The position numbers and the translations under genes were made by a program. DNA of 32,000 bases. It comes from Ignavibacteriales bacterium (GTDB taxonomy: Bacteria > Bacteroidota > Ignavibacteria > Ignavibacteriales > Melioribacteraceae). Positions 13,909-32,000 of this stretch are shown piece after piece. Each line of letters starts with the position of its first letter. Within the stretch, counting starts at the first letter, position 1. Location: contig JAIOYW010000012.1 in NCBI GenBank assembly GCA_021740915.1, positions 128,636-160,635 of the forward strand. Direction: 5' to 3'. The notes below the pieces were generated by a model. The model was given only the letters and a program-made list of their open reading frames with translations. It was not told the DNA's origin and made no database searches.

Positions 13909-14778
13909 ATGATAATTCAAATACTAATAAACAGTTTAATCAATGGATTACTACTCGCACTGGTTGCGTTAGGATTCCATATTATTTTTTCAGCCACAAA
14001 AATCTTTCATATTGCACACGGAGGAATTTTTGTTGCAGGAGTTTATTTCTTCTTGTGGGCAAATCCATTTGTGGGATTGGCATACGGAATAATCCTAACA
14101 ATTGTTTTCGCTTTTTTACTGGGAGTTATTATTGAATGGTTGGTTTATAAACCGCTCTTTAATAAATCAGGCAGCGAAAATATTGCTCTGATAAGTTCTC
14201 TCGGAGTTTACGTCATAATAATTAATATTATTGCATTACTTTTTGGCAATGAGACCAAAATCCTCGACAACAGTATCCGTAAAAGTTTAACTTTGGGTGA
14301 AATCATCATCACCAAACCTCAATTGTGGCAATTCTCTTTCTCACTCCCTCTAATCGCTTTGTTTTTGATGTTCATTAAAGTTACCAGATACGGACTGAAA
14401 ATAAGAGCCATCTCCGACAACCCCCTTTTAGCAAGAGTAATGGGAATTAATACTCAGAGAATCCGTTACATCGTTTTTGGGATAGGTTCTGTAATGTCGG
14501 TTTCTGCTGCACTTTTAAAGGGATTCGATACAGGTATTGACCCCTATTCTGGAATGGCAATTACACTTAGTGCTGCGGTGGTGGTAATTATTGGCGGGAC
14601 AGATTCTTTGTATGGCACAATATTCGCCTCGATAATGCTTGCAATAATTCAGAATTTTACGGAGTTCTTTCTCTCAGCCCAATGGAGAGATACAGTCACC
14701 TTTACAATTCTTATCCTCGTGATGTTGTGGCGCACCGAAGGTATCTTACAATTCCGCCTAAGAGTTGATGAGAAATGA
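13909..14778 (+). CDS. HAAT-family (branched-chain amino acid type) ABC transporter permease, LivH-like
   Basis: Polytopic 289-aa protein with the LivH-type segment LKIRAISDNPLLARVMGINTQRIRYIVFGIGSVMSVSAALL and the C-terminal GGTDSLYGTIFASIMLAIIQ. Confidence 0.85.
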   Translation: MIIQILINSLINGLLLALVALGFHIIFSATKIFHIAHGGIFVAGVYFFLWANPFVGLAYGIILTIVFAFLLGVIIEWLVYKPLFNKSGSENIALISSLGVYVIIINIIALLFGNETKILDNSIRKSLTLGEIIITKPQLWQFSFSLPLIALFLMFIKVTRYGLKIRAISDNPLLARVMGINTQRIRYIVFGIGSVMSVSAALLKGFDTGIDPYSGMAITLSAAVVVIIGGTDSLYGTIFASIMLAIIQNFTEFFLSAQWRDTVTFTILILVMLWRTEGILQFRLRVDEK

Positions 14779-15650
14779 ACTATGTCATTAACATATTAAT
14801 AATTCTACAGATTTACATCATACTGGCTTTGTCCCTGAATCTAAAAACAGGTTTTACCGGATTACTTTCATTATGCCAGGCAGCTTTCTATGGCACTGGC
14901 GCATACCTTACCTCCATATTAATGGTTGACATAGGTCTGAACTTTTTTACGGCTCTGTTTTTTGCGATTATTATTAACATTACTCTGAATGCCTCTATTA
15001 CCACCTGGTCTGCCGGCAGGTTGAGGAATCTTTACTTTACACTTGGGACCATAGCATTACAAATCGTATTTTTTGGAGTGATCTATAATTGGCAAGCTCT
15101 CACACGTGGTCCTTTCGGAATACCGGGAATTCCAAAACCCGAATTAGCAGGATTGATTTTTAATACCCCATTGAAGTTTTTTATTTTGACATTGTTTTTT
15201 ACTGCCTCCGCTATTTTGTTCTTTTACTGGTTCGCTAAAACACCATTATGTAAATTACTGGAATGTACACGGGATGATGAAGTCTGGCTTACTGTTTTAG
15301 GCAAACGCCCTGCCTATTACAAATTCGTTAGCATTTCCATTACAGTGGTGTTTGCCACCATTGCAGGGGCACTGTATGCAACTTTCACGAGCTACATCGA
15401 CCCTACGAGCTTCACATTGGATGAAAGTATTCTTGTCCTTACTATTATTCTTGTTGGCGGCACAGGTAATATCATGGGTCCCGTTTCCGGTGCATTGATC
15501 TATGTGCTGTTGCCCGAGGCGCTTCGCTTTGTCAACATGCCAGATTCTATTGCTGCCAATGCCCGAATGATTATCTATGCACTTATTCTGATTTTTATTG
15601 TCCGGTTAAAGCCCAACGGCTTATTTGGTAAATTTGAAATTCGCGGATAA
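14775..15650 (+). CDS. HAAT-family ABC transporter permease, LivM-like
   Basis: LSLCQAAFYGTGAYLTSIL, CTRDDEVWLTVLGKRPAYYKFVSISITVVFATIAGALYA and LVGGTGNIMGPVSGA match LivM-type permeases. 4-nt overlap with the upstream gene. Confidence 0.85.
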   Translation: MNYVINILIILQIYIILALSLNLKTGFTGLLSLCQAAFYGTGAYLTSILMVDIGLNFFTALFFAIIINITLNASITTWSAGRLRNLYFTLGTIALQIVFFGVIYNWQALTRGPFGIPGIPKPELAGLIFNTPLKFFILTLFFTASAILFFYWFAKTPLCKLLECTRDDEVWLTVLGKRPAYYKFVSISITVVFATIAGALYATFTSYIDPTSFTLDESILVLTIILVGGTGNIMGPVSGALIYVLLPEALRFVNMPDSIAANARMIIYALILIFIVRLKPNGLFGKFEIRG

Positions 15651-16375
15651 TGGAAGAACTATTAATCATAAGAGACTTAAACAAACACTATGATGGCATA
15701 ATTGCCGTGGATAAGGTCAATTTCACCATAATGCCGGGTACCATTACAGGTATTTATGGTGATAACGGCGCTGGCAAGACTACGTTATTCAACATTATCA
15801 GCGGTTTTGAAAAGGCTGATATGGGCAATGTTGTATTTGAAGGAGAAGATATCACTCGAAAAAGTGTTATTTACAGATCAAGAAAAGGTATCGGAAGGTT
15901 ATTCCAGATACCCCGTATTTTCAGTGATGTTTCGGTGCTAGATAATTTACTGGCTGCAGGGAACAACCATGAAGCAAAATATTTGCACAACTACGTGCTC
16001 AAACCCGCTGCTATCCGGCAAAATATATTAAAGGATCGCGATAAAGCAAAAAATATACTTAAAGAATTTAATTTGACCAGCAAGGCCGGATTAAAGGCTT
16101 TTGAACTTAGTGTTGGTGAAAAAAGGCTGCTATCGCTATGTTCACTCTTAATGAATGAGGCAAAGTTATTATTGTTAGACGAACCTTTCGCCGGGATAAA
16201 TGAAATTGCCGCACTGCAGATACAAAATTATCTTATTTCCTTAAAAAGCAGAGGCATGACATTAGTGATGATTGAACATGACAAAACGAAACTGTTTGAA
16301 TTAGCTGATTCTGTTTATGAGATGAAACAAGGAAGTCTATTGAAAAAAACGAGCACAAGTCATGCAAATTACTAA
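15650..16375 (+). CDS. ABC transporter ATP-binding protein, LivG-like
   Basis: Walker A GDNGAGKTTLFNIISG, Q-loop GIGRLFQ, signature LSVGEKRLLSL, Walker B LLLLDEPFAG, H-loop MIEHD. The start overlaps the upstream stop by 1 nt. Confidence 0.85.
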   Translation: MEELLIIRDLNKHYDGIIAVDKVNFTIMPGTITGIYGDNGAGKTTLFNIISGFEKADMGNVVFEGEDITRKSVIYRSRKGIGRLFQIPRIFSDVSVLDNLLAAGNNHEAKYLHNYVLKPAAIRQNILKDRDKAKNILKEFNLTSKAGLKAFELSVGEKRLLSLCSLLMNEAKLLLLDEPFAGINEIAALQIQNYLISLKSRGMTLVMIEHDKTKLFELADSVYEMKQGSLLKKTSTSHANY

Positions 16376-17144
16376 GTCAAATATAGTTTTAGAAATCCAA
16401 AACCTCTCCTGTGGCTATGGAGGTAAACCGGTGGTTGAAAATTTTAGCCTGCAGGTGGAGAAAGGAGATTGCATAGCTATTACTGGTCCAAACGGTTCCG
16501 GTAAGAGTACTTTGTTAAAAGCTATTTATCAGCTCTGCGTTATTAATTCAGGCAAAATAATTTATAAAGGGCAATCTCTGAATGGCAGAACTGCTGAACA
16601 GGTGAAGAAAATGGGGATTTCCTACTTCATGCAGAAGAATGCTATTTTTAATAAGTTATCTGTAAAAGAAAATCTTGAAATTGCATATCCCGAAAATATT
16701 CTGGATAATTTGTTTAAGGAAGAATCAACTTTTACAAATAGCGCAGTTTCAAAGTTTAAACTTTTTTTCTTTAGGTTTTATTCGAAAATCCTTTTTTTTA
16801 ATCTTCGAGTTGACCTGAGTAGGCGAGTCAAAAAATACGTTGAAATACTTTGGACATTCTCAGATTTTTATAAATGGACAGACACTAAGAAAGCAGGCTT
16901 GCTAAGTGTCGGGCAACGTCAGCAATTAGCTCTTGCTATGCTTTATGCTCAGGAAGCAGATCTTTGGTTGCTTGATGAACCTACTGCGGGCCTGGATGCA
17001 GATAAATCTGAGATTTTCGTGCAGATGTTATTAAAACACTCATGGAAAACTTCAGATAACCCAAAGACTATTATCTTTGTTGAGCATAAAAATGAAATTA
17101 TAAATAAATTGGCGAATAAAATAATTAATTTTAAGGGTGAATAA
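16362..17144 (+). CDS. ABC transporter ATP-binding protein, LivF-like, with an extra hydrophobic/low-complexity insertion
   Basis: Walker A GPNGSGKSTLLKAIY, signature LSVGQRQQLALA, Walker B LWLLDEPTAGLD, H-loop FVEHK. The spacing between ENLEIA and the signature is about twice what I expect for LivF (see finding). Confidence 0.8.
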   Translation: MQITKSNIVLEIQNLSCGYGGKPVVENFSLQVEKGDCIAITGPNGSGKSTLLKAIYQLCVINSGKIIYKGQSLNGRTAEQVKKMGISYFMQKNAIFNKLSVKENLEIAYPENILDNLFKEESTFTNSAVSKFKLFFFRFYSKILFFNLRVDLSRRVKKYVEILWTFSDFYKWTDTKKAGLLSVGQRQQLALAMLYAQEADLWLLDEPTAGLDADKSEIFVQMLLKHSWKTSDNPKTIIFVEHKNEIINKLANKIINFKGE

Positions 17145-17145
17145 A

Positions 17146-18273
17146 ATGAAAAGAGCAATGAAACACATCGTCCTATTATTTTTTGTACTTTTTTTATTTA
17201 CGGATTGTAATAATGTAAATAAAGGCAAAGAAGTAATAAAAATTGGGGCCACTCTGGACTTTACGGGTCCAAATGCTGTATATGGAATTCAAGTAAAAGA
17301 AGGTATTGACCTTGCAGTGGATTTCATTAACGATACTCTAAAATATGGAAATAATGTTATCGAGGTGGATTATTTAGATTCAAAGAGTAACAGCAAAGAA
17401 GCCATCAACAATGCCAATAGATTTACCAGTATTGATAAGAAGAAATTTATTATTGGGGAAATCTCATCAAATGCAACAAAATCAATGATACCCGTTATTG
17501 AATCAAACAATGCTTTCCTTTTTGCTCCTGCCTCCTCTGGCTCAATACTTGCCGATATTAGTAATAATTTTGCAAGAAATTGGCCATCTGATGATATCGA
17601 GGCTGGTTATGCGGCGAAATTTGCATTAAATAATTTTAAAAGTAATAATCCCATTATTATATACGTAAATAGTTATTATGGTATCGGTTTGAAGGATAAA
17701 TTTAAGAATGTTTATATGCAGAATGGAAAACAAATTATGGACACATTGTCCTTTGAGGTTGATCAAACTGATTTTAAGTCTTTGATTTCGAAAGTTAAAG
17801 AAAAAAATCCTGATTGCATTTATTTAGCAGGAAATCCAAAAGAAATGGGAAGATTTATGAAACAATTATCTGAACAAAATTATAGGAACAATATTGTTTC
17901 CAATACGGGATTTTTACAAACTGATTGCCTTGGTATTGCGGGCATAGCGGCAAATGGAGTAGTAGTCCCAACCCCAAAATCATCTGATTTAAATCTAAAA
18001 TTGAATTCCGTAAAACGTTTTCAAAAAATGTTTTATAACACTTATAAAAAGGAGCCTACTCTTGTAAATGCAAATTCTTTTGATGCCATAATATTGATAT
18101 ATGACGCCATACAAAAAGTAGGTCAGGATGCTATTAAAGTAGCTAGGGACATTCGCAACAAAAAGGGATTTGAGGGAGCTTCGGGAATTTCCAACTTTTC
18201 AGATGGAGAAATTGAGCTGGAGATTATGTATGTCAGAATAGAAAATCAAAAACCAGTTGAAATAACGGAATAG
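17146..18273 (+). CDS. Periplasmic/lipoprotein amino-acid-binding protein (Peripla_BP_6, LivK-like)
   Basis: The track ORF starts at GTG 17137. The ATG at 17146 follows AAGGG. Signal plus lipobox: MKRAMKHIVLLFFVLFLFTDC. Family pattern: IKIGATLDFTGPNAVYGIQVKEGIDLAVDFIN. Confidence 0.8.
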   Translation: MKRAMKHIVLLFFVLFLFTDCNNVNKGKEVIKIGATLDFTGPNAVYGIQVKEGIDLAVDFINDTLKYGNNVIEVDYLDSKSNSKEAINNANRFTSIDKKKFIIGEISSNATKSMIPVIESNNAFLFAPASSGSILADISNNFARNWPSDDIEAGYAAKFALNNFKSNNPIIIYVNSYYGIGLKDKFKNVYMQNGKQIMDTLSFEVDQTDFKSLISKVKEKNPDCIYLAGNPKEMGRFMKQLSEQNYRNNIVSNTGFLQTDCLGIAGIAANGVVVPTPKSSDLNLKLNSVKRFQKMFYNTYKKEPTLVNANSFDAIILIYDAIQKVGQDAIKVARDIRNKKGFEGASGISNFSDGEIELEIMYVRIENQKPVEITE

Positions 18274-18274
18274 T

Positions 18275-19279
18275 ATGAATCTTCCCAAAAGAACCAACCT
18301 ATCAAGGGAGATTATTAAAAGGCAAGATGTTATTGATTTTCTAAATTCAAATAAACCATTAAATTATTTGTTTGATATGCCTTTTAACCTTCCTCTGGCT
18401 CGAATAGAATTATACAAGAGGACCTACTTTGGAATCGGAAACACTGAATGTTATAAAATCAACTTGAAAAATAACAATCAGCTCTACTTAAAAATGGAAT
18501 ATCTTAATTCAATGGGCAACACACATTATTCCAGATTTTGGTTGATCTATCTGTTTTTGTGTGAGGCTTTTGGGATAATCAGCCCTAATAAAACCAAAAT
18601 TCTTGAAGTCACCAGTGGAAGTTCAGGAATTGCATTGGCGAGAGCAGCTAATATATTTCAATATTTCACAACAATTATCGTACCAAACATCCTTCCTCAG
18701 ACACGTACTTCACCAATGAATAACAAGTATGTTAATGTTATTTCTGTCCCAGGCTATATTCCAGAGTGTATTGACAAACTTAGGGTTTTGAATAAGGAAA
18801 CAATCTACTTTGCAACAAATCATTCCGAAGAAAAGTCAGACACGATCATAAAAGTCTTTTCAAGAATTGCACATGAAATCATAAATGAACATATTGATCC
18901 CGATTATTCCATAATTGCACTTGGTAATGGCACCTCAACACTAGCAATTGCAAAGACTCTAAAGTTGCATAATCCCAATACTCAGGTATGGACATATAAA
19001 CCTGACTTTGAACGGAAACCTGACGATATAGTATTTGGCTTAATCGTGCCAAATATCGATTTCAGACACTTAAAACCGGCGCTGTCCTATGTGGATAAAG
19101 TTTTATTTACAACTGGTGTTGACCTTAGCGAAATTAAAAATTATTTTCAGTTCGATACTGAAATATCGAATCTTGGCTTTTCCTCTCTTTACGGGATTTA
19201 TTTTGCGATTGATCTAGCTAAATCGGTTCAGGAAAAAAAAATATTAACTTTAGGTTATGACAAAATTGATAGATATTAA
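18275..19279 (+). CDS. Cysteine-synthase/tryptophan-synthase-beta fold (PALP) protein, apparently lacking the Schiff-base lysine
   Basis: By-eye alignment to CysK. LKMEYLNSMGNTHYSRFW aligns with the K-containing xVESxNPxxSVKxRI segment. ILEVTSGSSGIALARAA aligns with EPTSGNTGIALA. IIALGNGTSTLAIAK aligns with the GVGTGGT phosphate loop. The start lies 1 nt after the binding-protein stop. Confidence 0.6.
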   Translation: MNLPKRTNLSREIIKRQDVIDFLNSNKPLNYLFDMPFNLPLARIELYKRTYFGIGNTECYKINLKNNNQLYLKMEYLNSMGNTHYSRFWLIYLFLCEAFGIISPNKTKILEVTSGSSGIALARAANIFQYFTTIIVPNILPQTRTSPMNNKYVNVISVPGYIPECIDKLRVLNKETIYFATNHSEEKSDTIIKVFSRIAHEIINEHIDPDYSIIALGNGTSTLAIAKTLKLHNPNTQVWTYKPDFERKPDDIVFGLIVPNIDFRHLKPALSYVDKVLFTTGVDLSEIKNYFQFDTEISNLGFSSLYGIYFAIDLAKSVQEKKILTLGYDKIDRY

Positions 19280-19289
19280 AAAAGGTGCC

Positions 19290-22200
19290 ATGGAAAATAT
19301 TTACCGGTTTTATGAAGACATCCTTTCGAAATTAAAACTTTCTATAATCGGTTATGAACATATTTTAAAGGAGGTTAATGATTTTTTTTATTTGCTCACC
19401 TCTTACGCGGATTTTAAAGATAATAAAAACATTAGATTCATTTCATATTCGCTCGCGAAATTAAAGAATGCCAGCAATTGGGAAACCGAGTTATTGTCAA
19501 GTGACTTTTTCTTTCATGCTTTTCAAGAAGACCAATGTCTATATGAGTTAAGTTTTTATAATTACCTAAAATCTCAAAAAGGCATAAAATTTAGCACTAT
19601 AACTTCACTGAGTAATTTATTAGCGACAGACTTAAGTTTTCGAGTTGGTTGCATTGATAGCAATAATAAGAAATTTGAGTATGACGCACAGAATAAATTA
19701 TTATCCTTTTATATACCAAAGTCGGCAGTCTTTCTCGATGTTTTCTCCGATTCTCATGAAAATTATAAAAAAAATATAGATTCGAAGTCCGTTACAGAAT
19801 TTTTTGTTGAACAGGATAAAAGTATTTTTAAAAGAAAAAGTCCAAAGAGTGATTCTGAAATAGAGAAGCTAAGTAAAAAATTATATAAAGAAGGATTCAA
19901 TTTAGTTGGAATTGACTCGCTGGAAGTTTGTCTGATAAACTATTTAACGAATTTCATCGAGGAAAACCCAGAACTTTTTGTCCATTTTGATGATGCTGAA
20001 GAAAAGGAAAAACATATCGTTTACTGGGTTTTTCAAATTGTTTCAATTGCTTTTATTGCAAATATTTACAATTGCTGGGTTGAATATTTGCCAGCTATCG
20101 TTGGTATTATTAACAGGGAATCTGGTGCCGAGAACGCAGGAACGGCACCAGAAAACGTTAAGACTGAATACAGAAATTTGGGCTCATTTATTGTTGGATA
20201 TTCAGTAGGTTATGAGTTAACTAAAGACGAAAGAACGATATCTAAGCTAATTTCTGAAAGAGTAAGTTATGCAATAGGAGGAGAGTATTTAAAGAAAATT
20301 TTAACAGAAATTGAAGATTTTTCCCTGAATGCGGCTATTTCACGTATTATTTTATCTAATACTGCTCACCACCTCATTAGTCACTGCGCTCCATATTGCA
20401 CAACCGATAAGGTTATAAAAAGATTAAATTTCACTTCACTTACGGCTGATCAACTTAACTCAGTAATTAAAATGGTTAATCTTTATACGCTTTATGAAAA
20501 TTCGCGCAACGAATTTGTCGCCGGATTAAATAATAATAATCAACCTGTCGCTTTGCGTTTCTATAAGGACATAATTCAACCACTTGCTGAAAATTGCCTT
20601 CTACTGGATACTATTGCGGCAAGCGAGCAAATAACCTGGGGAAAAAAGGAAAATGGGAAAAATATTAATGACATTCAAGGAATAAGTCGTTTAAGGTTTC
20701 GGATATTCTACCATTGCAATCTCTTCGGTGAGAATAAATGGGAAAAAGGAAATGCCTGCTCAAAGAGAATTGAAAACAATTCAGTTGAGATATGCACTAA
20801 AAATTGTGAAATCAATAATTCAGGTAATGAGATTTATGAAGAAACCTATTTAGAAGCACCTGGTGATTACAGAGAAATGGTTGCTTATTACAAATACTTC
20901 AATGAATATAATAGCTCAAATATCCCAAGTAGTATATATTGTATTCATAGTTTACCTTATTTCAGATACTATAATCAGGATTCATTTCATAATGGGAATG
21001 TGGAATATACGTGTGAAAATGACATTGAAATTTTGGTTCGTGGTACACAGGGTATGCAATCGATTTATTCAATTCTTGAAAATTTTATTCGTAATACAGC
21101 AAAACATGCAAGTAAAAGTGTATTAGAAGACATTTTCCATTTGGATATAATAATAAAACTAAAAAAGGGGGAAACTTCTGATAATATTAATATGGAGCTT
21201 ATATCCAATATCCCAACGTTTAATAATGTGTGCACAGAGAGTGAATTAAGCGCGAATGAAAATAAAAACACCCCGTATGCAAAAATTTTGTTAGAGTCAA
21301 CTAAAGGTATTTACCCAACCACAATCCAGCGCGGAATAGCTGACATGAAAATTAACGGTGTGTTTCTTAAAATGCAGGAGATCACACAAAGAAATCTGGA
21401 AAAGGCGATAAAAGTGGGATATTACCCTAATAAACAGAATAACAAATACTCCATTGCCTACAGTTTTGTTCTTAAGAGACCACAAAAAATCGCATTTGTC
21501 GGCGATTTTAATAAACCCAACAATTACACCACTGATTTCGAAACATTCGGGATAAGAATATTTACTGATTTAAATGATGAACTGTATAGTTTTAAATTTG
21601 TTGTTTTCACAAGCGAATTTTTTAAAATAAGGAAGGATACTATTCTTGCTTCCGGAGACGGTGTAATGAATGAATGGTTATACCGCCTGCCCAGAAGAGT
21701 AATAATATTTGGCGATGATGTAAGTGTGGTTGAAAATATAATAAATAATTTCAACATTAGCTCTAAACGATTTATTATCACGAATGAAAATCCTCTACGA
21801 GGATCAAATTTTGAAACCCTAAAAACCTGCTGGCAAATATGGCTGAAAAGATGGTTGGGAGCTAAAGAAAGGATTTTTCTTAAGGTTGTTCCGGATGAAA
21901 AAACGTCCACAAACATTTTTGATAATCTTACTGATAAAAATATTTTTTCACAAGATTCGAAAATTAAATTAAGGAATATTTCGTTTTTGCGGCACGAAAA
22001 TACGATCGCAGACGATAAAGAAAAAAAAGCAAATTGGTTAAATGAGGATTGGTTTCTTGAAAATATTGAAAAAAACAATAAAGACTTTAATGTTATTTGG
22101 GGAAATAGAGATACTGTCAAATCTGAAAATTCCGATTTTCATTATGATTTATCCGAGACGGGTCTCTTAAAAATACTCATATTTGAGGAAAGATTAATTG

Positions 22201-22715
22201 AGTCATTGGGAAATAAGCAATTTACATACCCCAGTAAGAGCGATTTCCCTTTCCCTGGTGCTGGTTCTTCAAAACAGGTAGAACGAATTAAATTATACCA
22301 ACGCGATTATTTAGATGTGTCCATCGCAGCCAATTTGTATATAGTAACTCATTTTAATGATTTACAAATAAAATCAGTAAAGACAAATAGAAATTGTAAA
22401 TTTTATTCTAAAAATAATGAAATAGAGATCATGTCAGAGGATATGAACAATAAAAAAGTTGCAATTAAAGATTTTGATGTTTTAATAATTCACAGAACTC
22501 AACTTAATAATTTGTTTGAAAAAGATAATAAGAACGATATTTTTAATATTTTAAAGAAAAATTTCCCGATGATATATATTTCAACCGGAGGCGGCAGCAT
22601 TACCGATATTGAAGATAAGACTAAATTTAAGTTTGGTTTAATATCTTTAAATCAACTTCTAAACCATTTAACTCAAAGTGTAATGAAACATTCATTCAAA
22701 ACATATATTACTTAA
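19290..22715 (+). CDS. Large (about 1140-1152 aa) histidine-kinase-like ATPase protein with Cys/His-rich insert and C-terminal pseudo-receiver domain; otherwise uncharacterised
   Basis: The track start is ATG 19257, overlapping the upstream gene by 23 nt. The alternative ATG 19290 is preceded by AAGGTG. A NarX/DesK-style N-box YSILENFIRNTAKHASK lies at nt 21071-21118, followed by HLDIIIKL...MELISNIP...RGIADMKINGVFLK. A His-rich candidate phospho-site region ISRIILSNTAHHLISH lies near nt 20349-20387. HC-x12-C-x10-C-x3-C lies at nt 20711-20806. The C-terminal receiver-like fold has acidic residues replaced: LKILIFEERLIE ... FDVLIIHRTQL ... PMIYISTGGGS. Confidence 0.55.
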   Translation: MENIYRFYEDILSKLKLSIIGYEHILKEVNDFFYLLTSYADFKDNKNIRFISYSLAKLKNASNWETELLSSDFFFHAFQEDQCLYELSFYNYLKSQKGIKFSTITSLSNLLATDLSFRVGCIDSNNKKFEYDAQNKLLSFYIPKSAVFLDVFSDSHENYKKNIDSKSVTEFFVEQDKSIFKRKSPKSDSEIEKLSKKLYKEGFNLVGIDSLEVCLINYLTNFIEENPELFVHFDDAEEKEKHIVYWVFQIVSIAFIANIYNCWVEYLPAIVGIINRESGAENAGTAPENVKTEYRNLGSFIVGYSVGYELTKDERTISKLISERVSYAIGGEYLKKILTEIEDFSLNAAISRIILSNTAHHLISHCAPYCTTDKVIKRLNFTSLTADQLNSVIKMVNLYTLYENSRNEFVAGLNNNNQPVALRFYKDIIQPLAENCLLLDTIAASEQITWGKKENGKNINDIQGISRLRFRIFYHCNLFGENKWEKGNACSKRIENNSVEICTKNCEINNSGNEIYEETYLEAPGDYREMVAYYKYFNEYNSSNIPSSIYCIHSLPYFRYYNQDSFHNGNVEYTCENDIEILVRGTQGMQSIYSILENFIRNTAKHASKSVLEDIFHLDIIIKLKKGETSDNINMELISNIPTFNNVCTESELSANENKNTPYAKILLESTKGIYPTTIQRGIADMKINGVFLKMQEITQRNLEKAIKVGYYPNKQNNKYSIAYSFVLKRPQKIAFVGDFNKPNNYTTDFETFGIRIFTDLNDELYSFKFVVFTSEFFKIRKDTILASGDGVMNEWLYRLPRRVIIFGDDVSVVENIINNFNISSKRFIITNENPLRGSNFETLKTCWQIWLKRWLGAKERIFLKVVPDEKTSTNIFDNLTDKNIFSQDSKIKLRNISFLRHENTIADDKEKKANWLNEDWFLENIEKNNKDFNVIWGNRDTVKSENSDFHYDLSETGLLKILIFEERLIESLGNKQFTYPSKSDFPFPGAGSSKQVERIKLYQRDYLDVSIAANLYIVTHFNDLQIKSVKTNRNCKFYSKNNEIEIMSEDMNNKKVAIKDFDVLIIHRTQLNNLFEKDNKNDIFNILKKNFPMIYISTGGGSITDIEDKTKFKFGLISLNQLLNHLTQSVMKHSFKTYIT

Positions 22716-25777: not shown

Positions 25778-26042
25778 GATAATGCCATTGGATGTTCTGT
25801 CTTCAATTAAAGGGGCAAATCCTTCAAAAGCTGTTGAAGAGCTTTTTATTAATGTAAAAAATGCAGTGAGTGAAATTGAAGAAAAGTCTGAATTTGAAAC
25901 TCATGATCAAATAATGACTGTTGAAGTCTTACGGGAGGACAAGGTTAATAAGTCTCCGGAGGATGAGATTGAAATTATTAAACGGAATTTTCCTTTACAA
26001 AAGGATAGTTATTTGGTAGTCCCGAGAGTAATTGAAGAATAG
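25770..26042 (+). CDS. gatC: Asp/Glu-tRNA amidotransferase subunit C (GatC)
   Basis: 90 aa, the right size for GatC. C-terminal GatC pattern VEVLREDKVNKSPEDEIEIIKRNFPLQKDSYLVVPRVIEE (LRED...VPxVI). The ATG overlaps the upstream stop by 8 nt, and the gene sits directly upstream of gatA. Confidence 0.7.
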   Translation: MSKIMPLDVLSSIKGANPSKAVEELFINVKNAVSEIEEKSEFETHDQIMTVEVLREDKVNKSPEDEIEIIKRNFPLQKDSYLVVPRVIEE

Positions 26043-26046
26043 AGAA

Positions 26047-27456
26047 ATGGAATCAGAAATAAAGAGAATACATAATCTTCTTTCGAGCGGAGAAATATCC
26101 TGTAAAGACTTGATAGGAGAAAAACTTTTATTGCTCGAAAGAAATGAGTACAATACTGCTAACCTTATATTAAAAGAATATGCCACTCAATTAGCAGAAA
26201 AGGTGGACAAAAGAATACAAGCCGGCAAAAAAATTGGCTTGCTTGAGGGAATTCCCTTTGGAATAAAGGACGTTATTTTATTAAAGGGACATAAAGCTAC
26301 TGCAAGTTCAGATATGTTGAAAGAATATATTGCACCTTATTCGGCAACAGTAGTGCAAAAACTACTGGATGTCGGTGCAATACCTATAGTTAAAGAAAAC
26401 TGCGATAGCTTTGGACATGGAAGCACCAATGAAAACACGATTTTTGGGTCTGTGAAAAATGCTTTGGATTTACGAAAAGTTGCCGGTGGTTCAAGTGGTG
26501 GCAGTGCAGTCAATGTTGCAAAAGGCATTACTGTTTTTAGTATAGGTGGCGATACCGGCGGCTCCATCAGACAACCATCGGGATATAATAAAGTTTACGG
26601 GCTAAAACCTACTTACGGCAAAGTTTCTCGTTATGGTATGATGGCTTACGCCTCATCTTTAGATACTATTGGTCCTATTGCAAACTCGATTGAGGATATA
26701 AGAATATTGCTGGACATTATCTCCGGTGAAGATATTCATGATATGAATACATATGCGGGCACAGTACTTCCTAAGAAAAAATTCGAATCCGAATCAGATC
26801 CTAAAAATTTTACGGTTGGTTACTATGTGGATTTCGTAAAAAGTAATTTTCTACATCCGAAATTAAAAACTGAATTTAATGATTTGATAGAAAAACTAAA
26901 ATTCGAGGGTGTCGAAATTGTTGAGTTAAATTTATTAAATACGGACCTTTTAGTTTCGATCTATTATGTTTTAGCAATGGCTGAAACCGCTTCAAATTTG
27001 GCGCGTCTTGACGGAATAAATTATGGAAAGCGAAGTGATTCCAGAAATTTAAAGGAGTCATACTCTGAAACGCGCTCTGAAAACCTTTCAGAAGAAACAA
27101 AAAGGAGAATAATCGGAGGTAATCAGGTCCTTTCCCATGGTCATTCTGAGGATATTTATATTAAAGCGATTCATTTACGAAATAATTTAAAAAAAGCTTT
27201 CTTTAATGACCTGCAAACGGTGGACATAATTCTCTCCCCAGTTTCAACAGTTCTCCCTCCGAATATCGGGGAAAGTTTACATGATCCTTACGCGATGTAC
27301 CTGTCAGATATTTATACGGTCGGTTTTAGTCTTAGTGAATTGCCTGTCCTAAACGTACCTTTATTCCTGGAGACCGGATTGCAGATTGCCTCAAATAAAA
27401 ATCAGGAAGCAATGATTTTTAAATTTGCTAATTATCTTAAACAAATAAGCTTATGA
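26047..27456 (+). CDS. gatA: Asp/Glu-tRNA amidotransferase subunit A (GatA, amidase-signature glutaminase)
   Basis: The track start is TTG 26032. The ATG at 26047 gives MESEIKRIHNLL. Amidase signature with a complete Ser-cisSer-Lys triad context: GIPFGIKDV, GGSSGGSAVNVAKG, GGDTGGSIRQPSGYNKVYGLKPTYGKVSRYGMMAYASSLDTIGP. Confidence 0.9.
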   Translation: MESEIKRIHNLLSSGEISCKDLIGEKLLLLERNEYNTANLILKEYATQLAEKVDKRIQAGKKIGLLEGIPFGIKDVILLKGHKATASSDMLKEYIAPYSATVVQKLLDVGAIPIVKENCDSFGHGSTNENTIFGSVKNALDLRKVAGGSSGGSAVNVAKGITVFSIGGDTGGSIRQPSGYNKVYGLKPTYGKVSRYGMMAYASSLDTIGPIANSIEDIRILLDIISGEDIHDMNTYAGTVLPKKKFESESDPKNFTVGYYVDFVKSNFLHPKLKTEFNDLIEKLKFEGVEIVELNLLNTDLLVSIYYVLAMAETASNLARLDGINYGKRSDSRNLKESYSETRSENLSEETKRRIIGGNQVLSHGHSEDIYIKAIHLRNNLKKAFFNDLQTVDIILSPVSTVLPPNIGESLHDPYAMYLSDIYTVGFSLSELPVLNVPLFLETGLQIASNKNQEAMIFKFANYLKQISL

Positions 27457-28880
27457 AAGCAGAAAAACTTAATGAACTCCTTGAACAACATGACTTAGAG
27501 ATAGTGATTGGATTGGAGACTCACATACGTTTAAATACCAATTCAAAATTATTTTGTTCCTGTGAGAATAAAGAAGCAGAAGTTCCAAATTCTAACATTT
27601 GTCCGATTTGCACCGGGCAAATGGGAGCATTGCCATCTCTCAATAAAGAAGCTGTAAGTAAAGCCATTATTTTCGGAAAAGTTATTGGGTCATCTTTCGT
27701 CAATAAATTAATTCACTGGGATAGAAAACATTATGAGTATCCTGATTTACCTAAAAACTATCAGTTAACTCAACACAAAAAACCAATTATTTCAGACGGA
27801 TTGATTAAATGTTATAGAAATGATGGTACCATTTTTACGGTTAATATTGAACAAGTTCATATTGAAGAAGATGCCGCAAAATTAATTCATGACGGAGAAA
27901 TCACATTAGTCGATTTTAATAAATCTGGTGTGCCTTTAATTGAAGTTGTTACCCAGCCGTGTATTCATAATATTACCGATATTCCATATTATGCTCAGAC
28001 ACTTCAACGTATAGTCCAGATTTATAATATTTCTGCTGCAAATCTTGAAAAGGGTGAATATAAATCGGATGTCAGTGTTTCACTGCGTAAAAGAGGGGCA
28101 AACGAATTAAATCCACGTGTGGAAATAAAAAATCTGAATTCATTCAGGTTCATGACCGACGCTGTACATACTGAAGTTGTAAAACAAATTGACTTCTTCA
28201 TTAAGAACAATTCTTTCAATGGGGAGATGACTACTGTATTGTTTGAGCCAACATCAAAGAATACAAAAACCATGCGCAAAAAGGAATTTGCCGCCGATTA
28301 CCGTTTTGCAAAAGAGCCGGATATTCCATCAATTGATATTTCAGATGCTATATTAGAGATTGATATAGACTATGAGGTTTTTCCATTTAATATCGAAACC
28401 GTATTAATTGACCAAGGAATCCGTCCTCAGGACGCAAAATATTTCACTTCAGATATAAAAAGGGCGATTGTCTTTACCGAGATAAACAGACGATTAAACA
28501 ACCCCAAGCTTGTTGCTAAAAATCTCTTTAACCTCATCAAGTCTGAGGATTACGAAAAAATAATTAATATTATTCCTTTTTCTGTTGTGCTCGATTTATT
28601 TTTTAAAGATAAGATTTCCCATAATAAATTAAAACAGATCATTGAAAACCTGCTTAAAAACAATGATTTTGACTTCCAGACTTTTTTAGATACCAATCAA
28701 GTAGATTTTTCGAAAGTTGACCAGATTATTAATAAAATTCTTTTTGACTATAATGAAATCGTTACTCAGATTAATTCGGGTGAATTAAATAAAATCAGTT
28801 TCTTAGTAAGTGCAGTACTTAAAATAACGGGGAAAGAAATTTCCGGTAAATATATAAAAAATAAAATTCAGGAATTGATA
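27453..28880 (+). other. gatB: GatB module of the fusion ORF (cradle domain, helical domain, YqeY-like tail)
   Basis: Motifs listed for the parent ORF. The module ends at ...KNKIQELI, just before the linker ISGEAPLHNSEKHHKSSNLAAFDNKRTLSFEENIIVKE (nt ~28881-28995). Confidence 0.85.
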
Positions 28881-30734
28881 ATTTCCGGGGAAGCGCCTCT
28901 TCACAATTCAGAAAAACACCACAAATCAAGCAATTTAGCAGCTTTTGATAATAAGAGGACGCTTAGTTTTGAAGAAAACATTATTGTGAAAGAAAAGTAT
29001 CGGACACATCTCGTCACCGATATTTCTTTATTAAATATAGGTGATACGGTAACTTTAGCAGGGTGGATTTCTAGCATAAGAGATCACGGGGAGATAGTCT
29101 TTGTTGATTTGCGTGATTCAAGTTTTGAAATCTTCCAAATCAGGTTGACTAAAAGTAATATTGTAAATATTGATTACTATTCTAAAATTCCTGTGGAGTC
29201 AGTTGTTTCAGTTCATGGCAAAGTGATTAAGCGCAAATCTGATGATGTCAACTCCAAAATAAGATCAGGTGAATTAGAATTAGATGCCACTGCCTTCGAA
29301 ATACTTAACTTATCAAAACAAATTCCATTTGAAATCAGAAGATCAACCAAAATCAAAGAGGATTCGAGATTAATCTATAAATTTTTAGACCACAGAAACT
29401 CGGAAATTAGACATATTATTATTAATCGTCATCTTGTGATTCAATTTATAAGAAATTATTTAAGTAAACTTGGGTTTATTGAAATTGAAACGCCAATTCT
29501 ATCAGCTGGCACAGAAGAAGGAGCCAAAGAATTTATTGTACCTGCCCGGAAGTTTGTCGGAGCTTATTATGCACTCCCCCAATCACCACAGCAATATAAA
29601 CAGATGCTGATATGTAGTGGATATGATAAATATTTCCAAATAGCACGTTGCTTCCGAGACGAGGATTCCAGAGGGGACCGGCAGCCTGAGTTCACGCAAT
29701 TTGATTTGGAAATGGCATTTGCCAGCATGCAGGATATTATTAGTTTGAACACGACCTTGTTTAATGATTTGGTGTCTTCGGTATATGGGACCAAGTGGAA
29801 GCTTTTTCCTTTTAAGGTAATTACTTATGAAGAAGCTATTCTGAAATATGGCACCGATAGACCGGATTTAAGATATGGTCTTGAAATGGATGACATTACT
29901 GAGATTGTAATGAAAACAAATTTCAAGGTTTTTACAGATTCCATCAGACTTGGAGGAATAGTAAAATGTTTAAAGATTGATAAAGGCAGTAAAAAAAATG
30001 ACTTGACCCGTACACAAATTGAAAACCTGACTGAAATTGCCAAACAAAATGGTCTTGGCGGATTGGCTTATATAATTTTAAACAATGGAGAATTACAATC
30101 ACCCATAAAAAAATATTTGGGAGAAAGAGCATGTGATGAGATCATCAATAAGATGAAAGCTGTTGATGGTGATATATTATTTTTCTCTGCGGCAATGCCG
30201 AAGATCGCAAATAAAGCTTTGGATGCAGTCAGACAGGAATTGGGAAAAATTCTCGGTCTGGTAAAGCATAAGGAATTACACCCAGCTTGGATCGTTGATT
30301 TTCCTCAATTTGAGAAAACAGATGAAGGAAAATGGACTTTTTCGCATAATCCCTTCTCTATGCCAAGAATTGAGTACCTGAATGACCATTTGAATGCAAC
30401 AAATATAGAGAATATTATCGCCCAACAATATGACTTAGTCGTTAATGGTCATGAGATTGGCGGCGGTTCCGTAAGATCTCATAAAAGAGAAATTTTGGAA
30501 GCGACCTACAAAATTATGGGATATGATTCGTTGAAGATACAAAAAAGCATTGGTCACATGCTAAACGCATTTCAATATGGAACTCCTCCACATGGGGGTA
30601 TCGCCTGGGGAATTGATCGTTTAATGATGGTACTTGAGTCCAAATCTTCTATTCGTGAAGTCATTGCATTCCCCAAAACCGGCTCAGGTGAAGATTTGCT
30701 ATTTGGAAGTCCAAGCAAAAAGAATCAAAAATGA
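27453..30734 (+). CDS. gatB/aspS: Single ORF fusing full-length GatB (amidotransferase subunit B with YqeY-like tail) to full-length bacterial-type aspartyl-tRNA synthetase
   Basis: ATGA overlap with the gatA stop. GatB half: IGLETHIRLNTNSKLFCSC, CPICTGQMGALPSLNKEAV, HIEEDAAKLIH, GVPLIEVVTQP, PRVEIKNLNSFRFMTDAVHTEVVKQ, tail ISFLVSAVLKITGKEISGKYIKNKIQELI. AspRS half: RTHLVTD...GDTVTLAGWISSIRDHGEIVFVDLRD (OB fold), FIEIETPIL (motif 1), LPQSPQQYKQML, CFRDEDSRGDRQPEFTQFDLEMAF (motif 2), GTDRPDLRYGLE plus a GAD-type insertion, HNPFSMP, GGGSVRSH, GTPPHGGIAWGIDRLMMVL (motif 3). Confidence 0.9.
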   Translation: MKAEKLNELLEQHDLEIVIGLETHIRLNTNSKLFCSCENKEAEVPNSNICPICTGQMGALPSLNKEAVSKAIIFGKVIGSSFVNKLIHWDRKHYEYPDLPKNYQLTQHKKPIISDGLIKCYRNDGTIFTVNIEQVHIEEDAAKLIHDGEITLVDFNKSGVPLIEVVTQPCIHNITDIPYYAQTLQRIVQIYNISAANLEKGEYKSDVSVSLRKRGANELNPRVEIKNLNSFRFMTDAVHTEVVKQIDFFIKNNSFNGEMTTVLFEPTSKNTKTMRKKEFAADYRFAKEPDIPSIDISDAILEIDIDYEVFPFNIETVLIDQGIRPQDAKYFTSDIKRAIVFTEINRRLNNPKLVAKNLFNLIKSEDYEKIINIIPFSVVLDLFFKDKISHNKLKQIIENLLKNNDFDFQTFLDTNQVDFSKVDQIINKILFDYNEIVTQINSGELNKISFLVSAVLKITGKEISGKYIKNKIQELIISGEAPLHNSEKHHKSSNLAAFDNKRTLSFEENIIVKEKYRTHLVTDISLLNIGDTVTLAGWISSIRDHGEIVFVDLRDSSFEIFQIRLTKSNIVNIDYYSKIPVESVVSVHGKVIKRKSDDVNSKIRSGELELDATAFEILNLSKQIPFEIRRSTKIKEDSRLIYKFLDHRNSEIRHIIINRHLVIQFIRNYLSKLGFIEIETPILSAGTEEGAKEFIVPARKFVGAYYALPQSPQQYKQMLICSGYDKYFQIARCFRDEDSRGDRQPEFTQFDLEMAFASMQDIISLNTTLFNDLVSSVYGTKWKLFPFKVITYEEAILKYGTDRPDLRYGLEMDDITEIVMKTNFKVFTDSIRLGGIVKCLKIDKGSKKNDLTRTQIENLTEIAKQNGLGGLAYIILNNGELQSPIKKYLGERACDEIINKMKAVDGDILFFSAAMPKIANKALDAVRQELGKILGLVKHKELHPAWIVDFPQFEKTDEGKWTFSHNPFSMPRIEYLNDHLNATNIENIIAQQYDLVVNGHEIGGGSVRSHKREILEATYKIMGYDSLKIQKSIGHMLNAFQYGTPPHGGIAWGIDRLMMVLESKSSIREVIAFPKTGSGEDLLFGSPSKKNQK
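28996..30734 (+). other. aspS: AspRS module of the fusion ORF (OB-fold anticodon-binding domain, class II core, bacterial GAD insertion)
   Basis: Begins at KYRTHLVTD, equivalent to the natural N-terminus of bacterial AspRS. All three class II motifs and the QSPQ and GGGS(V/I)R(S/I)H signatures are present. Confidence 0.85.
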
Positions 30735-32000
30735 ATCCCTTTCACATATCCGATTCAAGTTTAGGTTTATCATTTCCGATTTTGATTGATACTCCTGAAA
30801 CCCTAATTGAAAAAGTAAGAGAGAAACATGCCAATTCAATATTATTTCTAATTAATATCAACTACCAAACAGATAACATTTCCCGTGCTGACAATGCCGG
30901 TATTCAATTCCTTAAATATTTACGATTAAATCATTTCAATCAACATTGTGTACTATATTCCTTTCTGAGCCGTGAACAGTTGATGATTCAAAATCCGCAC
31001 AATTCGATTATCTTCTCAGAAGGTGTTACATTCATCAGGATGCCAGCGGATTTAAAAAAGGTCGATTTTGAATCACTGGCAATAAAGCAAGCCCCCGATA
31101 ATCTCGGTGATTTTTTCAAGGCTGAATTTCGTTTACCGGATGATCGCCATTTCTTTGCGAACTGGTGGGGAGTTCTACAGCTATGGAAAGTGCAAAAAGC
31201 GGTTGAGGGAATCGCGGGGAGTACTACCCTTGCTGAAATTGAAATGGATTTAATGGGGTCAATTACAGAGATGTATTCTTACCCCGGGTTGGTTGCAAAA
31301 TATATAAAATGTGTGCCTGATGAAGATGTCGCAAATAAACTCAAATTACTCTTGAGTAAAAAAAACGAGGTTTATCAAACTGATATCAGGCATAGCTCGG
31401 AAATTGAACGTGAAAACAAAAAATTGCACAGCGAACTTAACAAGATTGATATTCAGTTGAATGTTCTGAATGAAACCCTTTCAGAAAAGCAGAGTGGTGT
31501 TTTCAGCAAACTCCTTTCAAATTTAACTGTTTTACCTTTAACAATTAAGAAGAAGATTGAATCCCTTGAGAAACAAAAGTATGATATCAAATCAAATATC
31601 ATTCAAAATCAAGAATACGTGGAATTGGTTAATCTGATAAAAAAAGAAAAAAACACTGTTTACGATGCACGCAGAAAACTGAACAGAAAGATACTAACTA
31701 ATTTAGATGAAATAACGGCAAAAAAAAGTTTTTCTACACGTAATTTCTCGATTGATAATACCCAAAAGACATTGGCGGATAAAAAACCATCTATCGTTTT
31801 TGTGGATGATCAGGCAAATGATGGTTGGGCTGCAATTTTCCAAAGAATAATCTATGGGAAAACCAACGATAAATTTTCGGTAATACAGCCGGGTAAAAAT
31901 GATTCTGTAAATGAAATTTCAAAGTTGATAGCTAATAGGATAGTTGAGAAAAAAGCTGATTTATTGGTACTCGATCTTCGGCTAAAAGGCGAAAGAGGAA
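30731..32000 (+). CDS. Receiver-domain protein (N-terminal receiver-like domain, coiled coil, canonical REC), truncated by the right edge
   Basis: Not in the ORF track because it has no stop in the window. ATGA overlap with the GatB-AspRS stop. My translation is open for 423 codons: MNPFHISDSSLGLSFPILIDTPETLIEKVREKHANSILFLININYQ...; coiled-coil segment SEIERENKKLHSELNKIDIQLNVLNETLSEKQ...; then REC: KPSIVFVDDQANDGWAAIFQRIIYG...KKADLLVLDLRLKGERG (acidic pair and phospho-acceptor Asp in place). Confidence 0.75.
   Translation, partial: MNPFHISDSSLGLSFPILIDTPETLIEKVREKHANSILFLININYQTDNISRADNAGIQFLKYLRLNHFNQHCVLYSFLSREQLMIQNPHNSIIFSEGVTFIRMPADLKKVDFESLAIKQAPDNLGDFFKAEFRLPDDRHFFANWWGVLQLWKVQKAVEGIAGSTTLAEIEMDLMGSITEMYSYPGLVAKYIKCVPDEDVANKLKLLLSKKNEVYQTDIRHSSEIERENKKLHSELNKIDIQLNVLNETLSEKQSGVFSKLLSNLTVLPLTIKKKIESLEKQKYDIKSNIIQNQEYVELVNLIKKEKNTVYDARRKLNRKILTNLDEITAKKSFSTRNFSIDNTQKTLADKKPSIVFVDDQANDGWAAIFQRIIYGKTNDKFSVIQPGKNDSVNEISKLIANRIVEKKADLLVLDLRLKGERG

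Follow-up and report, generated by a model that had tools for sequence, protein, structure and literature searches.

A receiver-linked asparaginase and a GatB::AspRS fusion in a modular signalling island of an Ignavibacteriales bacterium: a possible switch for asparagine depletion

The window analysed here, a stretch of 32,000 nucleotides (nt) from an Ignavibacteriales bacterium (contig JAIOYW010000012.1, positions 128,636 to 160,635), carries a plus-strand gene cluster which brings together an ATP-binding cassette (ABC) importer, a histidine-kinase-like protein with a small partner, an asparaginase fused to a receiver domain, and the predicted enzymes of tRNA-dependent asparagine (Asn) synthesis, in which GatB and the aspartyl-tRNA synthetase AspRS form a single polypeptide. 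Comparison with related loci shows that input, core and output modules are shuffled from one locus to another, and that asparaginase-gatC-gatA-gatB::aspS is one output cassette. Our preferred reading is tentative: a sensor-switched asparaginase may drain the free Asn of the cell while the transamidosome keeps tRNA-Asn charged, which we hold to be possible rather than probable. As to its purpose, we lean towards stress, dormancy or conflict rather than plain nutrition.

From position 13909 to the end of the window, the list of open reading frames (ORFs) gives 13 consecutive plus-strand genes, joined throughout by overlaps or tiny gaps. They are listed below with their lengths in amino acids (aa); a1 designates a pseudo-receiver domain which is described further on.

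13225-13908, no strand: upstream spacer of 684 nt, presumably promoter-bearing.
13909-14778, plus strand: LivH-type ABC permease, 289 aa (Pfam BPD_transp_2, 122.5 bits; the L016 copy is 66% identical); overlaps the next gene by 4 nt.
14775-15650, plus strand: LivM-type ABC permease, 291 aa (Pfam BPD_transp_2, 111.7 bits; the L016 copy is 73% identical); overlaps the next gene by 1 nt.
15650-16375, plus strand: ABC ATPase, LivG-like, 241 aa (Pfam ABC_tran, 109 bits); overlaps the next gene by 14 nt.
16362-17144, plus strand: ABC ATPase, LivF-like, 260 aa (Pfam ABC_tran, 99 bits).
17137-18273, plus strand: substrate-binding protein, 378 aa, start codon GTG (Pfam Peripla_BP_6, 140.9 bits); gap of 1 nt to the next gene.
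18275-19279, plus strand: PALP-fold protein, 334 aa (Pfam PALP, 79 bits, cut-off 35); overlaps the next gene by 23 nt.
19257-22715, plus strand: putative histidine-kinase-like protein, 1152 aa (fold matches and invariant residues); gap of 5 nt to the next gene.
22721-23428, plus strand: partner protein, 235 aa (near-invariant His93; LEFLHxCL helix); gap of 39 nt to the next gene, with GAGGAG 7 nt ahead of ATG 23468.
23468-25777, plus strand: output 1, 769 aa, a1 followed by a receiver and a predicted circularly permuted asparaginase; overlaps the next gene by 8 nt.
25770-26042, plus strand: GatC-like subunit, 90 aa (NCBIfam gatC, 25 bits for a cut-off of 47).
26032-27456, plus strand: GatA amidase subunit, 474 aa, start codon TTG or alternatively ATG 26047 (Pfam Amidase, 373 bits); ATGA overlap with the next gene.
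27453-30734, plus strand: GatB::AspRS fusion, 1093 aa (five Pfam domains: GatB_N, GatB_Yqey, tRNA_anti-codon, tRNA-synt_2 and GAD); ATGA overlap with the next gene.
30731-32000, cut by the window end, plus strand: output 2 (gene 13), 775 aa in full, a1 followed by a coiled coil, a receiver and a C-terminal domain.

The order kinase-like gene, partner gene, a1-receiver-asparaginase gene, gatC, gatA, gatB::aspS is found at four distinct loci: the window (present also on Logan contig L001), L027, L030 and a Tannerella locus (L031/L032). The cargo proteins of L027 are 56-75% identical to those of the window, its kinase-like protein is only 28% identical, and a short-chain dehydrogenase replaces the PALP-fold protein upstream. 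The asparaginase of L031 shares 41% identity, and its fusion 60%, with the window proteins, and a 524-aa a1-domain protein is encoded upstream of the importer. This Tannerella operon stops after the fusion, the cassette being the sole output downstream of the core. The sequence-only reading of the window had made its case depend on synteny of the uncharacterised genes with gatCAB-aspS in other genomes; L027, L030 and L031/L032 provide it, with core proteins down to 28% identity.

The genes in front of the core differ from locus to locus. The window and L005 have a Liv importer and a PALP-fold protein that lacks the catalytic lysine, L003, L004 and L031 have other ABC importers and a methyltransferase, L027 has an ABC ATPase and a short-chain dehydrogenase, and L016 has a Liv importer and a B12-radical-SAM enzyme. 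In L006 (6880-9170), a tRNA-dependent cyclodipeptide synthase (TIGR04539, above cut-off) and a 494-aa protein stand in place of importer and enzyme.

The slot after the core pair also accommodates other charging enzymes. In L002 it holds a TyrRS (360 bits, cut-off 114), a stand-alone a1 protein and an 823-aa protein with a C-terminal receiver, whose best family is the enterococcal tyrosine decarboxylase (TIGR03811, 333 bits). In L009, a TrpRS (348 bits, cut-off 177) is encoded further along the operon, near a homologous decarboxylase::REC. Judging from these family assignments, there are three cases in which a receiver-linked, putatively amino-acid-destroying enzyme lies beside the charging enzyme or enzymes for the same amino acid or one of the same class. 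Neither these TyrRS and TrpRS cassettes nor the modularity of the system, nor the existence of a stand-alone gatC-gatA-gatB::aspS operon (see below), figured in the sequence-only reading. We also considered whether the synthetases might label tRNAs with Q-type anticodons (Tyr, Asn, Asp) for attack by the RNase, and abandoned this since the L009 enzyme is a TrpRS.

Iterated profiles delineate the domain a1, a pseudo-receiver of about 140 residues with the motif GI..L..LRL..SFL..G..F..LP....RH and without an acidic pocket. It is present in about 30 proteins of the related loci, including the asparaginase, gene 13 and small stand-alone proteins such as those of 113 aa in L002 and 138 aa in L006. 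A second profile, a2, describes a regular receiver, with the residues DD, D, S/T and K. In the 769-aa protein, a1 covers aa 1-128 (nt 23468-23851; profile match E 4e-25) and the receiver aa 157-287 (nt 23936-24328), with D164, D165, D217 and the acceptor D222 (nt 24131-24133). The AlphaFold2 model of this protein (predicted local distance difference test, pLDDT, 80; predicted template modelling score, pTM, 0.83) comprises two (beta-alpha)5 domains (residues 1-128 and 157-287) and, after them, the asparaginase; the receiver of PhoP matches it with a template modelling score (TM) of 0.71. The four aspartates are nearly invariant in 11 homologues; the receivers of the asparaginase and of gene 13 look competent from their residues.

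The asparaginase part (aa ~290-769, nt 24335-25774) contains HGTDT (330-334, nt 24455-24469), SDAP, K407, TGGTI (450-454, nt 24815-24829) and DSS (505-507), and keeps the canonical Asn/Gln-binding residues. HGTDT, K407, TGGTI and DSS are invariant in the 11 homologues; since all the catalytic residues are invariant, the enzyme is probably active. The segment HGTDT...K407 precedes TGGTI...DSS, which is the reverse of the canonical order, and the alignments with PDB entries show the same swap: the N-domain is, by its motif order, circularly permuted. This feature is common to all 11 aligned homologues, including that of a Heimdallarchaeaceae metagenome-assembled genome (MAG) and those whose receiver is recognised by Pfam. 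The Pfam Asparaginase N-domain is matched with 78 bits (cut-off 22.5), the C-domain falls below its cut-off (28.5 vs 34.6), and so do the curated families asnASE_I (72 vs 260) and gatD_arch (50 vs 324). In Foldseek, the best match of the 769-aa model is archaeal GatD (1zq1_A, E 7.9e-10; 2d6f_B is listed as well), archaeal asparaginases follow closely by rank and have better TM-scores (0.6). The family scores favour an asparaginase over a GatD. A metagenome scan with the asparaginase alignment returned 80 loci, all with ordinary asparaginases and none with a1, partner or kinase-like gene. A distant REC-asparaginase (P0134) with a receiver recognisable by Pfam occurs in L033 (2776-3438, 16822-17601) without adjoining gatCAB; its neighbourhood includes a MNT/HepT toxin-antitoxin pair, Liv-type importer genes, an NtrC-type regulator and a Cas6 gene.

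The three genes downstream encode the amidotransferase and the synthetase. Every cassette and every stand-alone operon has, in the place of gatC, a gene for a protein of 86-90 aa, and the window copy is 56% identical to that of L027. The motifs of GatA (KD, GGSSGGS and GGDTGGSIRQP, which carry the Lys, cis-Ser and Ser) are intact on direct reading. Its score with NCBIfam gatA (430 bits, cut-off 481) is a trait of the lineage, because the stand-alone GatA of Marinilongibacter scores about the same (424 bits). The fusion comprises GatB (aa 14-476, nt 27492-28880) and a bacterial-type AspRS with its GAD insertion (aa 514-1092, nt 28992-30728); it matches NCBIfam aspS with 673 bits (cut-off 443), gatB PRK05477.1-2 with 386 bits (cut-off 338) and Pfam GatB_N with 305 bits, and bears the NCBI name 'bifunctional amidotransferase subunit GatB/aspartate--tRNA ligase AspS'. 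The fusion to GatB only suggests that this AspRS accepts tRNA-Asn, i.e. that it is non-discriminating. We found no description of the present system or of the GatB::AspRS fusion in the open-access literature.

Such fusions are common: the best-listed 120 clusters are 57-73% identical. Marinilongibacter and Algibacter carry gatC-gatA-gatB::aspS as an operon of its own, with these three genes only and unrelated ones around it. Among themselves, the window-type fusions of the islands share 72-73% identity, against about 59% with all others. The other 92 listed clusters have a mean identity of 69% to the stand-alone copy of Marinilongibacter; one of them is a copy from Melioribacteraceae, of the same class as the source organism. 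On these identities, the island copies form a divergent lineage.

The core consists of the 1152-aa protein and its 235-aa partner. The histidine-kinase-like nature of the former is supported by predicted structure: in a Foldseek search with its AlphaFold model (pLDDT 50), nearly all of the 50 matches listed, the best-fitting included, are histidine kinases or their ATP-binding domains (E 5e-4 to 1e-2). The protein has a variable N-terminal region (aa 1 to ~330), a long helix bearing His371 and His376 (nt 20367-20384), an N-box (E608-H617, nt 21078-21107) of the pattern E-N-x2-R-N-T-x-K-H, the likewise invariant Gly693 and a C-terminal alpha/beta domain (aa ~960-1152, nt 22134-22712) with E978-R979, I1078-H1079, G1111/G1113 and K1144. 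In 33 homologues from the fetched loci, the two histidines, the N-box, Gly693 and the C-domain residues are identical wherever they are covered. The C-terminal domain has a different invariant residue at each position of a receiver active site: E-R after strand 1, His1079 at the place of the acceptor Asp, G-x-G at that of the Ser/Thr, and a late Lys. The sequence-only reading had spoken of a giant histidine-kinase-like ATPase with a pseudo-receiver; the fold matches support the kinase-like part, and the receiver identity of the C-terminus was not confirmed, a PDB profile search with this domain giving nothing significant.

A word-based search found only six relatives of the kinase-like protein, and a HMMER scan with the alignment of these six found 2,771 representatives at E<=1e-3 (888 at E<=1e-30), counted at the 50% identity level. 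Nearly all members align over profile positions ~356-1148 and differ in their N-termini. An all-against-all comparison shows that the N-terminal ~330-420 residues vary in step with the type of importer or enzyme encoded upstream, from which we infer that kinase and transporter are coupled. A scan of one genome per species gave 21 loci, mostly from Bacteroidota, with two acidobacterial loci and one archaeal MAG. The system is common in Bacteroidota and Ignavibacteriota, with a few loci in Acidobacteriota and one in an archaeal MAG. In L011 (8420-15428), kinase-like genes occur in tandem (1070 and 1249 aa) ahead of the partner gene.

With a profile of the partner, a homologue was detected in 17 of the first 26 loci, nearly always directly 3' of the kinase-like gene (two lie elsewhere), and also in four loci fetched later. 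Of the loci with sequence that covers this place, most have the partner there. The partner measures about 200-250 aa across the family, and 19 members have no Pfam match. An RNase III-like identity was considered and rejected: the match of the C-terminal helices (LEFLHxCL ... LRDxLL) to the RNase III signature region of PDB 3o2r is weak (E 0.033) and was taken as probable chance.

The second output, gene 13, is matched by profiles a1, a2 and a3. Its a1 domain covers aa 3-145 (nt 30737-31165), and its receiver, which begins at aa 335 (nt 31733), has the residues DD, D, S and K and a sub-threshold match to Pfam Response_reg (E 9e-5). The C-terminal domain, encoded beyond the window, has no Pfam match; it contains an R-N-x3-H motif which is invariant in seven divergent members. 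R-N-x3-H counts as a HEPN signature, the criterion for HEPN being R-x4-6-H in an all-helical domain. A PDB profile search for HEPN gave no match: the domain may be called HEPN-like on its motif, and the fold is not confirmed. Like gene 13, the 1152-aa and 235-aa proteins have nothing above threshold in Pfam, NCBIfam or PADLOC. In other loci, the outputs include REC-DUF87/TraG (HerA/DUF87) ATPases, proteins with C-terminal membrane helices and, in the acidobacterial loci L024 and L025, NtrC-type response regulators. An HD protein and a Tpt1/KptA RNA 2'-phosphotransferase are recurrent neighbours elsewhere. The latter occurs in two loci (L009, 20628-21011; L014, 17633-18184) and hints at RNA damage or repair.

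On the input side, the N-terminus of the substrate-binding protein reads as a lipoprotein signal. Its score with the NCBIfam subfamily of branched-chain amino-acid-binding proteins (113 bits) is far under the cut-off, and therefore no ligand is assigned. Alignment of the PALP-fold protein to cysteine synthase 5xem places Tyr85 (nt 18527-18529) at the position of the Schiff-base lysine, and the L005 homologue (60% identical) has likewise lost this lysine and has the same GNTHYSR motif. Binding of a ligand, or an unusual enzymatic activity, is its probable role.

The ORF list reproduces every gene and junction of the sequence-only reading, and profile searches uphold its domain calls (two BPD_transp_2, two ABC_tran, Peripla_BP_6, PALP, Asparaginase, Amidase/GatA and the five-domain GatB::AspRS fusion) and the alignment to 5xem upholds the absence of the catalytic lysine from the PALP-fold protein. 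The only real gap is indeed the 39-nt one with its GAGGAG motif. Terminator-like hairpins occur at the rate expected by chance (10 found, 11.0 expected), and the only two on the plus strand are weak and lie inside coding sequence, in agreement with the claim that there is no internal terminator. A scan for sigma-70 promoters is uninformative for the host phylum. The cluster of 13 genes holds for the window, not for the locus: the ORF of gene 13 is still open at 32000, and on L001, found by an exact-protein look-up, nine further co-directional genes are called. The contig contains the rest of gene 13, then genes for proteins of 709, 243 and 306 aa, and further on a DA1-like peptidase, a VWA protein, a PP2C phosphatase, a second VWA protein and a Ser/Thr kinase (19457-23282). 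In L017 (502-4136), too, a VWA-kinase-VWA-LIM/DA1 set lies ahead of the genes for the Liv importer and the kinase-like protein, so that the association is recurrent; we take this VWA/PP2C/kinase set to resemble the TerY-P-type triad.

From the binding-protein gene to the asparaginase gene (window 17000-25000) the G+C content is 0.29-0.33, compared with 0.37-0.42 over the 10 kb upstream and 0.38-0.41 for the permease genes; the low value across the core is compatible with a foreign origin. The strongest terminator-like hairpin of the region (13675-13654, minus strand, nine pairs of which six are G-C, then a T-run) lies in the 684-nt spacer, and the minus strand has no gene to its right. For this spacer, a T-box or another leader RNA was rejected, the whole window being without any Rfam match and without any tRNA. 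Upstream of the cluster and outside it, an ordinary TPR-HisKA-HATPase_c histidine kinase and two proteins with type IX secretion sorting tails are encoded (1880-3958 and 4015-9202). Features such as these sorting tails place the host in the Bacteroidota-Ignavibacteriota group.

The mechanism which we propose, tentatively, is as follows. A small molecule would enter through the Liv-type importer, the lysine-less PALP-fold protein would bind or alter it, and the variable N-terminus of the kinase-like protein would read it. The kinase-like protein would then autophosphorylate on His371 or His376 and pass the phosphoryl group to Asp222 of the asparaginase receiver, a1 serving as a docking handle for the transfer. 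The activated cytoplasmic asparaginase would convert free Asn to aspartate (Asp) and ammonia. The product of the asparaginase is the substrate of AspRS, and the tRNA-dependent route to Asn is established (PMC3367201). The co-translated GatC, GatA and GatB::AspRS would act as a covalent Asn-transamidosome, which charges tRNA-Asn with Asp and amidates it on the tRNA, and the decoding of Asn would be uncoupled from the free Asn pool. The same core would fire the second receiver protein, gene 13, with its HEPN-like putative RNase domain. The cassette would thus be a switch that depletes one amino acid and at the same time, by its own enzymes, safeguards the translation of the cell.

Several observations weigh against this reading. 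The kinase-like protein has no match in Pfam, NCBIfam or PADLOC, and neither HisKA nor HATPase_c is detected in it; its AlphaFold model is poor. The partner and the kinase C-domain are without an assigned role, and we infer the phosphotransfer and the activation of the asparaginase. A plain TyrRS or TrpRS cannot bypass the loss of the free amino acid, and the safeguard would be strict for Asn only; besides, if translation is safeguarded, the benefit of depleting Asn is unclear. As for a role in conflict, ABC importers are untypical of known anti-phage systems, a PADLOC search with eight proteins gave no meaningful match (the presence of Detocs models in the set used was not verified), no relative of the kinase-like protein was found in the viral contigs searched, and we know of no phage or defence phenotype for this system. 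The NtrC-type outputs of the acidobacterial loci fit ordinary metabolic signalling. Taken together, the HEPN-like, REC-DUF87/TraG and membrane outputs, the HD, Tpt1 and VWA/PP2C/kinase neighbours, the shuffling of modules and the drop in G+C across the core suggest a stress or conflict system, whereas the importers, the NtrC-type outputs and the empty PADLOC and viral-contig searches suggest ordinary nutrient signalling. A bolder version, which strikes us as rather doubtful, is that the importer-wired kinase-like family (2,771 representatives) serves, on a chemical cue, to starve the cell, or anything with which it shares cytoplasm or surroundings, of a chosen amino acid (Asn, Tyr or Trp) in an immune or antagonistic strategy, dedicated tRNA charging providing self-immunity.

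The nearest competitor is a nutrient-use regulon without any role in conflict, in which an imported amide or amino acid is sensed, the asparaginase is switched on, Asn is used as a source of nitrogen and carbon, and the transamidosome sustains translation. The Liv-type importer and binding protein of the operon, the NtrC-type regulators of L024 and L025 and the lack of PADLOC and viral-contig matches agree with this, and the two-component systems AauSR of Pseudomonas and GlnKL of Bacillus control the uptake of acidic and amide amino acids together with asparaginase or glutaminase. However, the same core drives the non-metabolic HEPN-like, HerA/DUF87 and membrane-protein outputs, and control after translation by two receiver-fold domains would be elaborate for a catabolic enzyme. 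Moreover, the asparaginase cassette stays constant across freely varying importers and input enzymes, and the signal is therefore not tied to Asn. On balance we regard this explanation as unlikely. Resistance to an antimetabolite or synthetase inhibitor, where an imported toxic analogue or inhibitor is sensed and destroyed by the amidohydrolase or decarboxylase and the charging route of the cassette, via AspRS and GatCAB around AsnRS or via an additional TyrRS or TrpRS, restores translation, would account for the threefold pairing of a degrading enzyme with a charging enzyme for the same amino acid, and for the importer at the front of the operon. Resistant second copies of aminoacyl-tRNA synthetases are a known device of self-protection and resistance, and the divergent lineage of the island fusions gives some support to this idea, which the sequence-only reading had put forward as an accessory or resistance copy of the pathway. 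We nevertheless find it quite unlikely: no biosynthetic genes for such a compound lie nearby and no such compound is known, the asparaginase retains its canonical Asn/Gln-binding residues, and the HEPN-like and other toxic-looking outputs are left unexplained.

The asparaginase might instead be part of the amidation machinery, as a GatD-like ammonia donor docked on GatB::AspRS whose phosphorylation switches the synthesis of Asn-tRNA. The first rank of GatD in Foldseek, the 8-nt overlap of the asparaginase and gatC genes and the fixed gene order in all four cassettes speak for such a regulated transamidosome. Yet a complete GatA glutaminase is present, the stand-alone operons do without an asparaginase, the protein is closer to type I asparaginases (both by its score far from the GatD cut-off and by the TM-scores of the archaeal asparaginases), and such a logic has no counterpart in the TyrRS and TrpRS cassettes; its chances seem poor to us. 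The sequence-only reading had proposed a phosphorelay that switches tRNA-dependent charging in response to an imported amino acid; regulation is retained here, but the regulated element appears to be the REC-asparaginase and not the amidotransferase itself. That the charging enzymes feed a transferase which makes a signal or natural product, the system regulating this synthesis, is very improbable. The cyclodipeptide synthase in the input position of L006, the radical SAM enzymes of L004, L009 and L016 and the several proteins without assigned function could be understood in this way, but no transferase dependent on aminoacyl-tRNA was detected in the window, L027, L030 or L031, and no enzyme gene is left over for such a step in the minimal Tannerella operon. 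Finally, gatC-gatA-gatB::aspS could be a housekeeping operon that lies by chance beside an unrelated signalling island, as the widespread fusion family and the housekeeping-looking surroundings of the Marinilongibacter and Algibacter operons might suggest. The cassette follows the core pair directly at four loci, although the cores are only 28% identical and the phyla differ; at either end of it the start and stop codons of adjoining genes overlap, and the island copies are divergent. The recurrent linkage and the divergent lineage argue against chance adjacency, which is hardly credible.

If the depletion-and-safeguard reading is true, a proteinogenic amino acid would join NAD+, ATP and dNTPs among the metabolites that bacteria deplete on command, and keeping the aminoacyl-tRNA while the free amino acid is destroyed would be a new form of self-protection. 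It would also give a physiological setting to the widespread and unstudied GatB::AspRS fusion, a covalent transamidosome, and account for accessory synthetases that travel with amino-acid-consuming enzymes. Whatever the function, several entries are new for the databases: a kinase-like family, thousands strong and absent from all domain libraries, its obligatory partner, a pseudo-receiver which may act in docking and a circularly permuted asparaginase. The Tannerella-type operon, with four to six genes, is small enough for direct testing.

Among known systems, the architecture resembles by analogy that of Detocs, of which it is not a demonstrated member. Detocs, a defensive two-component system, consists of the kinase DtcA, with recognisable HisKA/HATPase_c domains and a phospho-accepting His, the stand-alone 'buffer' receiver DtcB and the receiver-effector DtcC (bioRxiv 10.1101/2023.01.24.525353). 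In both, a cytoplasmic sensor of kinase type, putative in the present case, is encoded with receivers fused to enzymatic effectors that deplete, or here would deplete, a metabolite, and the effector domain is swapped between loci, nuclease and membrane types included. As in DtcC, a receiver with an acceptor Asp is fused to the effector in the asparaginase (D164, D165, D222) and in gene 13, the effectors being different from the PNP domain of Detocs. Unlike in Detocs, the sensor belongs to an unrelated family without a Pfam match and has its own partner of ~200-250 aa; the effectors have a1 as an additional pseudo-receiver; the input module is made up of ABC importers and small-molecule enzymes; the depleted metabolite would be an amino acid instead of ATP; and enzymes for tRNA charging are encoded along with the effector. 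No stand-alone receiver comparable to DtcB is encoded in the window, and the 235-aa partner shows no receiver similarity. The Detocs-like arrangement envisaged in the sequence-only reading is thus the best match in anatomy (kinase-like fold, intact effector receivers, varied effectors), and departs from Detocs in the family of its sensor, its attached importers and the lack of a PADLOC match.

Other parts of the system have parallels of their own. BceS-BceAB-type kinases, like the present one, lack an obvious membrane sensor and are encoded with an ABC transporter, and the BceAB-S structure 8g3a is among the fold matches of the 1152-aa protein; here, however, the transporters are importers of several families with binding proteins, and an enzyme gene is added. 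The PALP-fold protein has the fold of the pyridoxal phosphate-dependent fold-type II enzymes, with Tyr85 in place of the lysine that forms the internal aldimine. The asparaginase shares its fold and both catalytic triads with type I L-asparaginases and archaeal GatD, and differs from them by the reversed halves of its N-domain, the two receiver-fold domains in front and scores far below the equivalog cut-offs.

The pairing of a consuming enzyme with a cluster-specific, co-evolving synthetase has a precedent in the tyramine cluster of Enterococcus, tyrS-tdcA-tyrP-nhaC (PMC3315439, PMC4932888), whose tyrS-1 lies beside the enzyme that consumes the amino acid (PMC3315439). L002 even carries a decarboxylase of the same type beside its TyrRS. 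Here, in contrast, there is no gene for a precursor/product exchanger and ABC importers are found instead, control would be exerted by a receiver fused to the enzyme and not by transcription, and, for Asn, the whole indirect pathway replaces the synthetase. This pathway is that of the Asn-transamidosome, made of a non-discriminating AspRS and GatCAB (PMC3367201, PMC4206432), and organisms that have an AsnRS are known to keep the tRNA-dependent route as well (PMC4206432). In the window a GatC-like protein, GatA, GatB and a bacterial-type AspRS are likewise encoded together, with the difference that GatB and AspRS are a single polypeptide and that the operon is set in a signalling island, behind a putatively regulated asparaginase.

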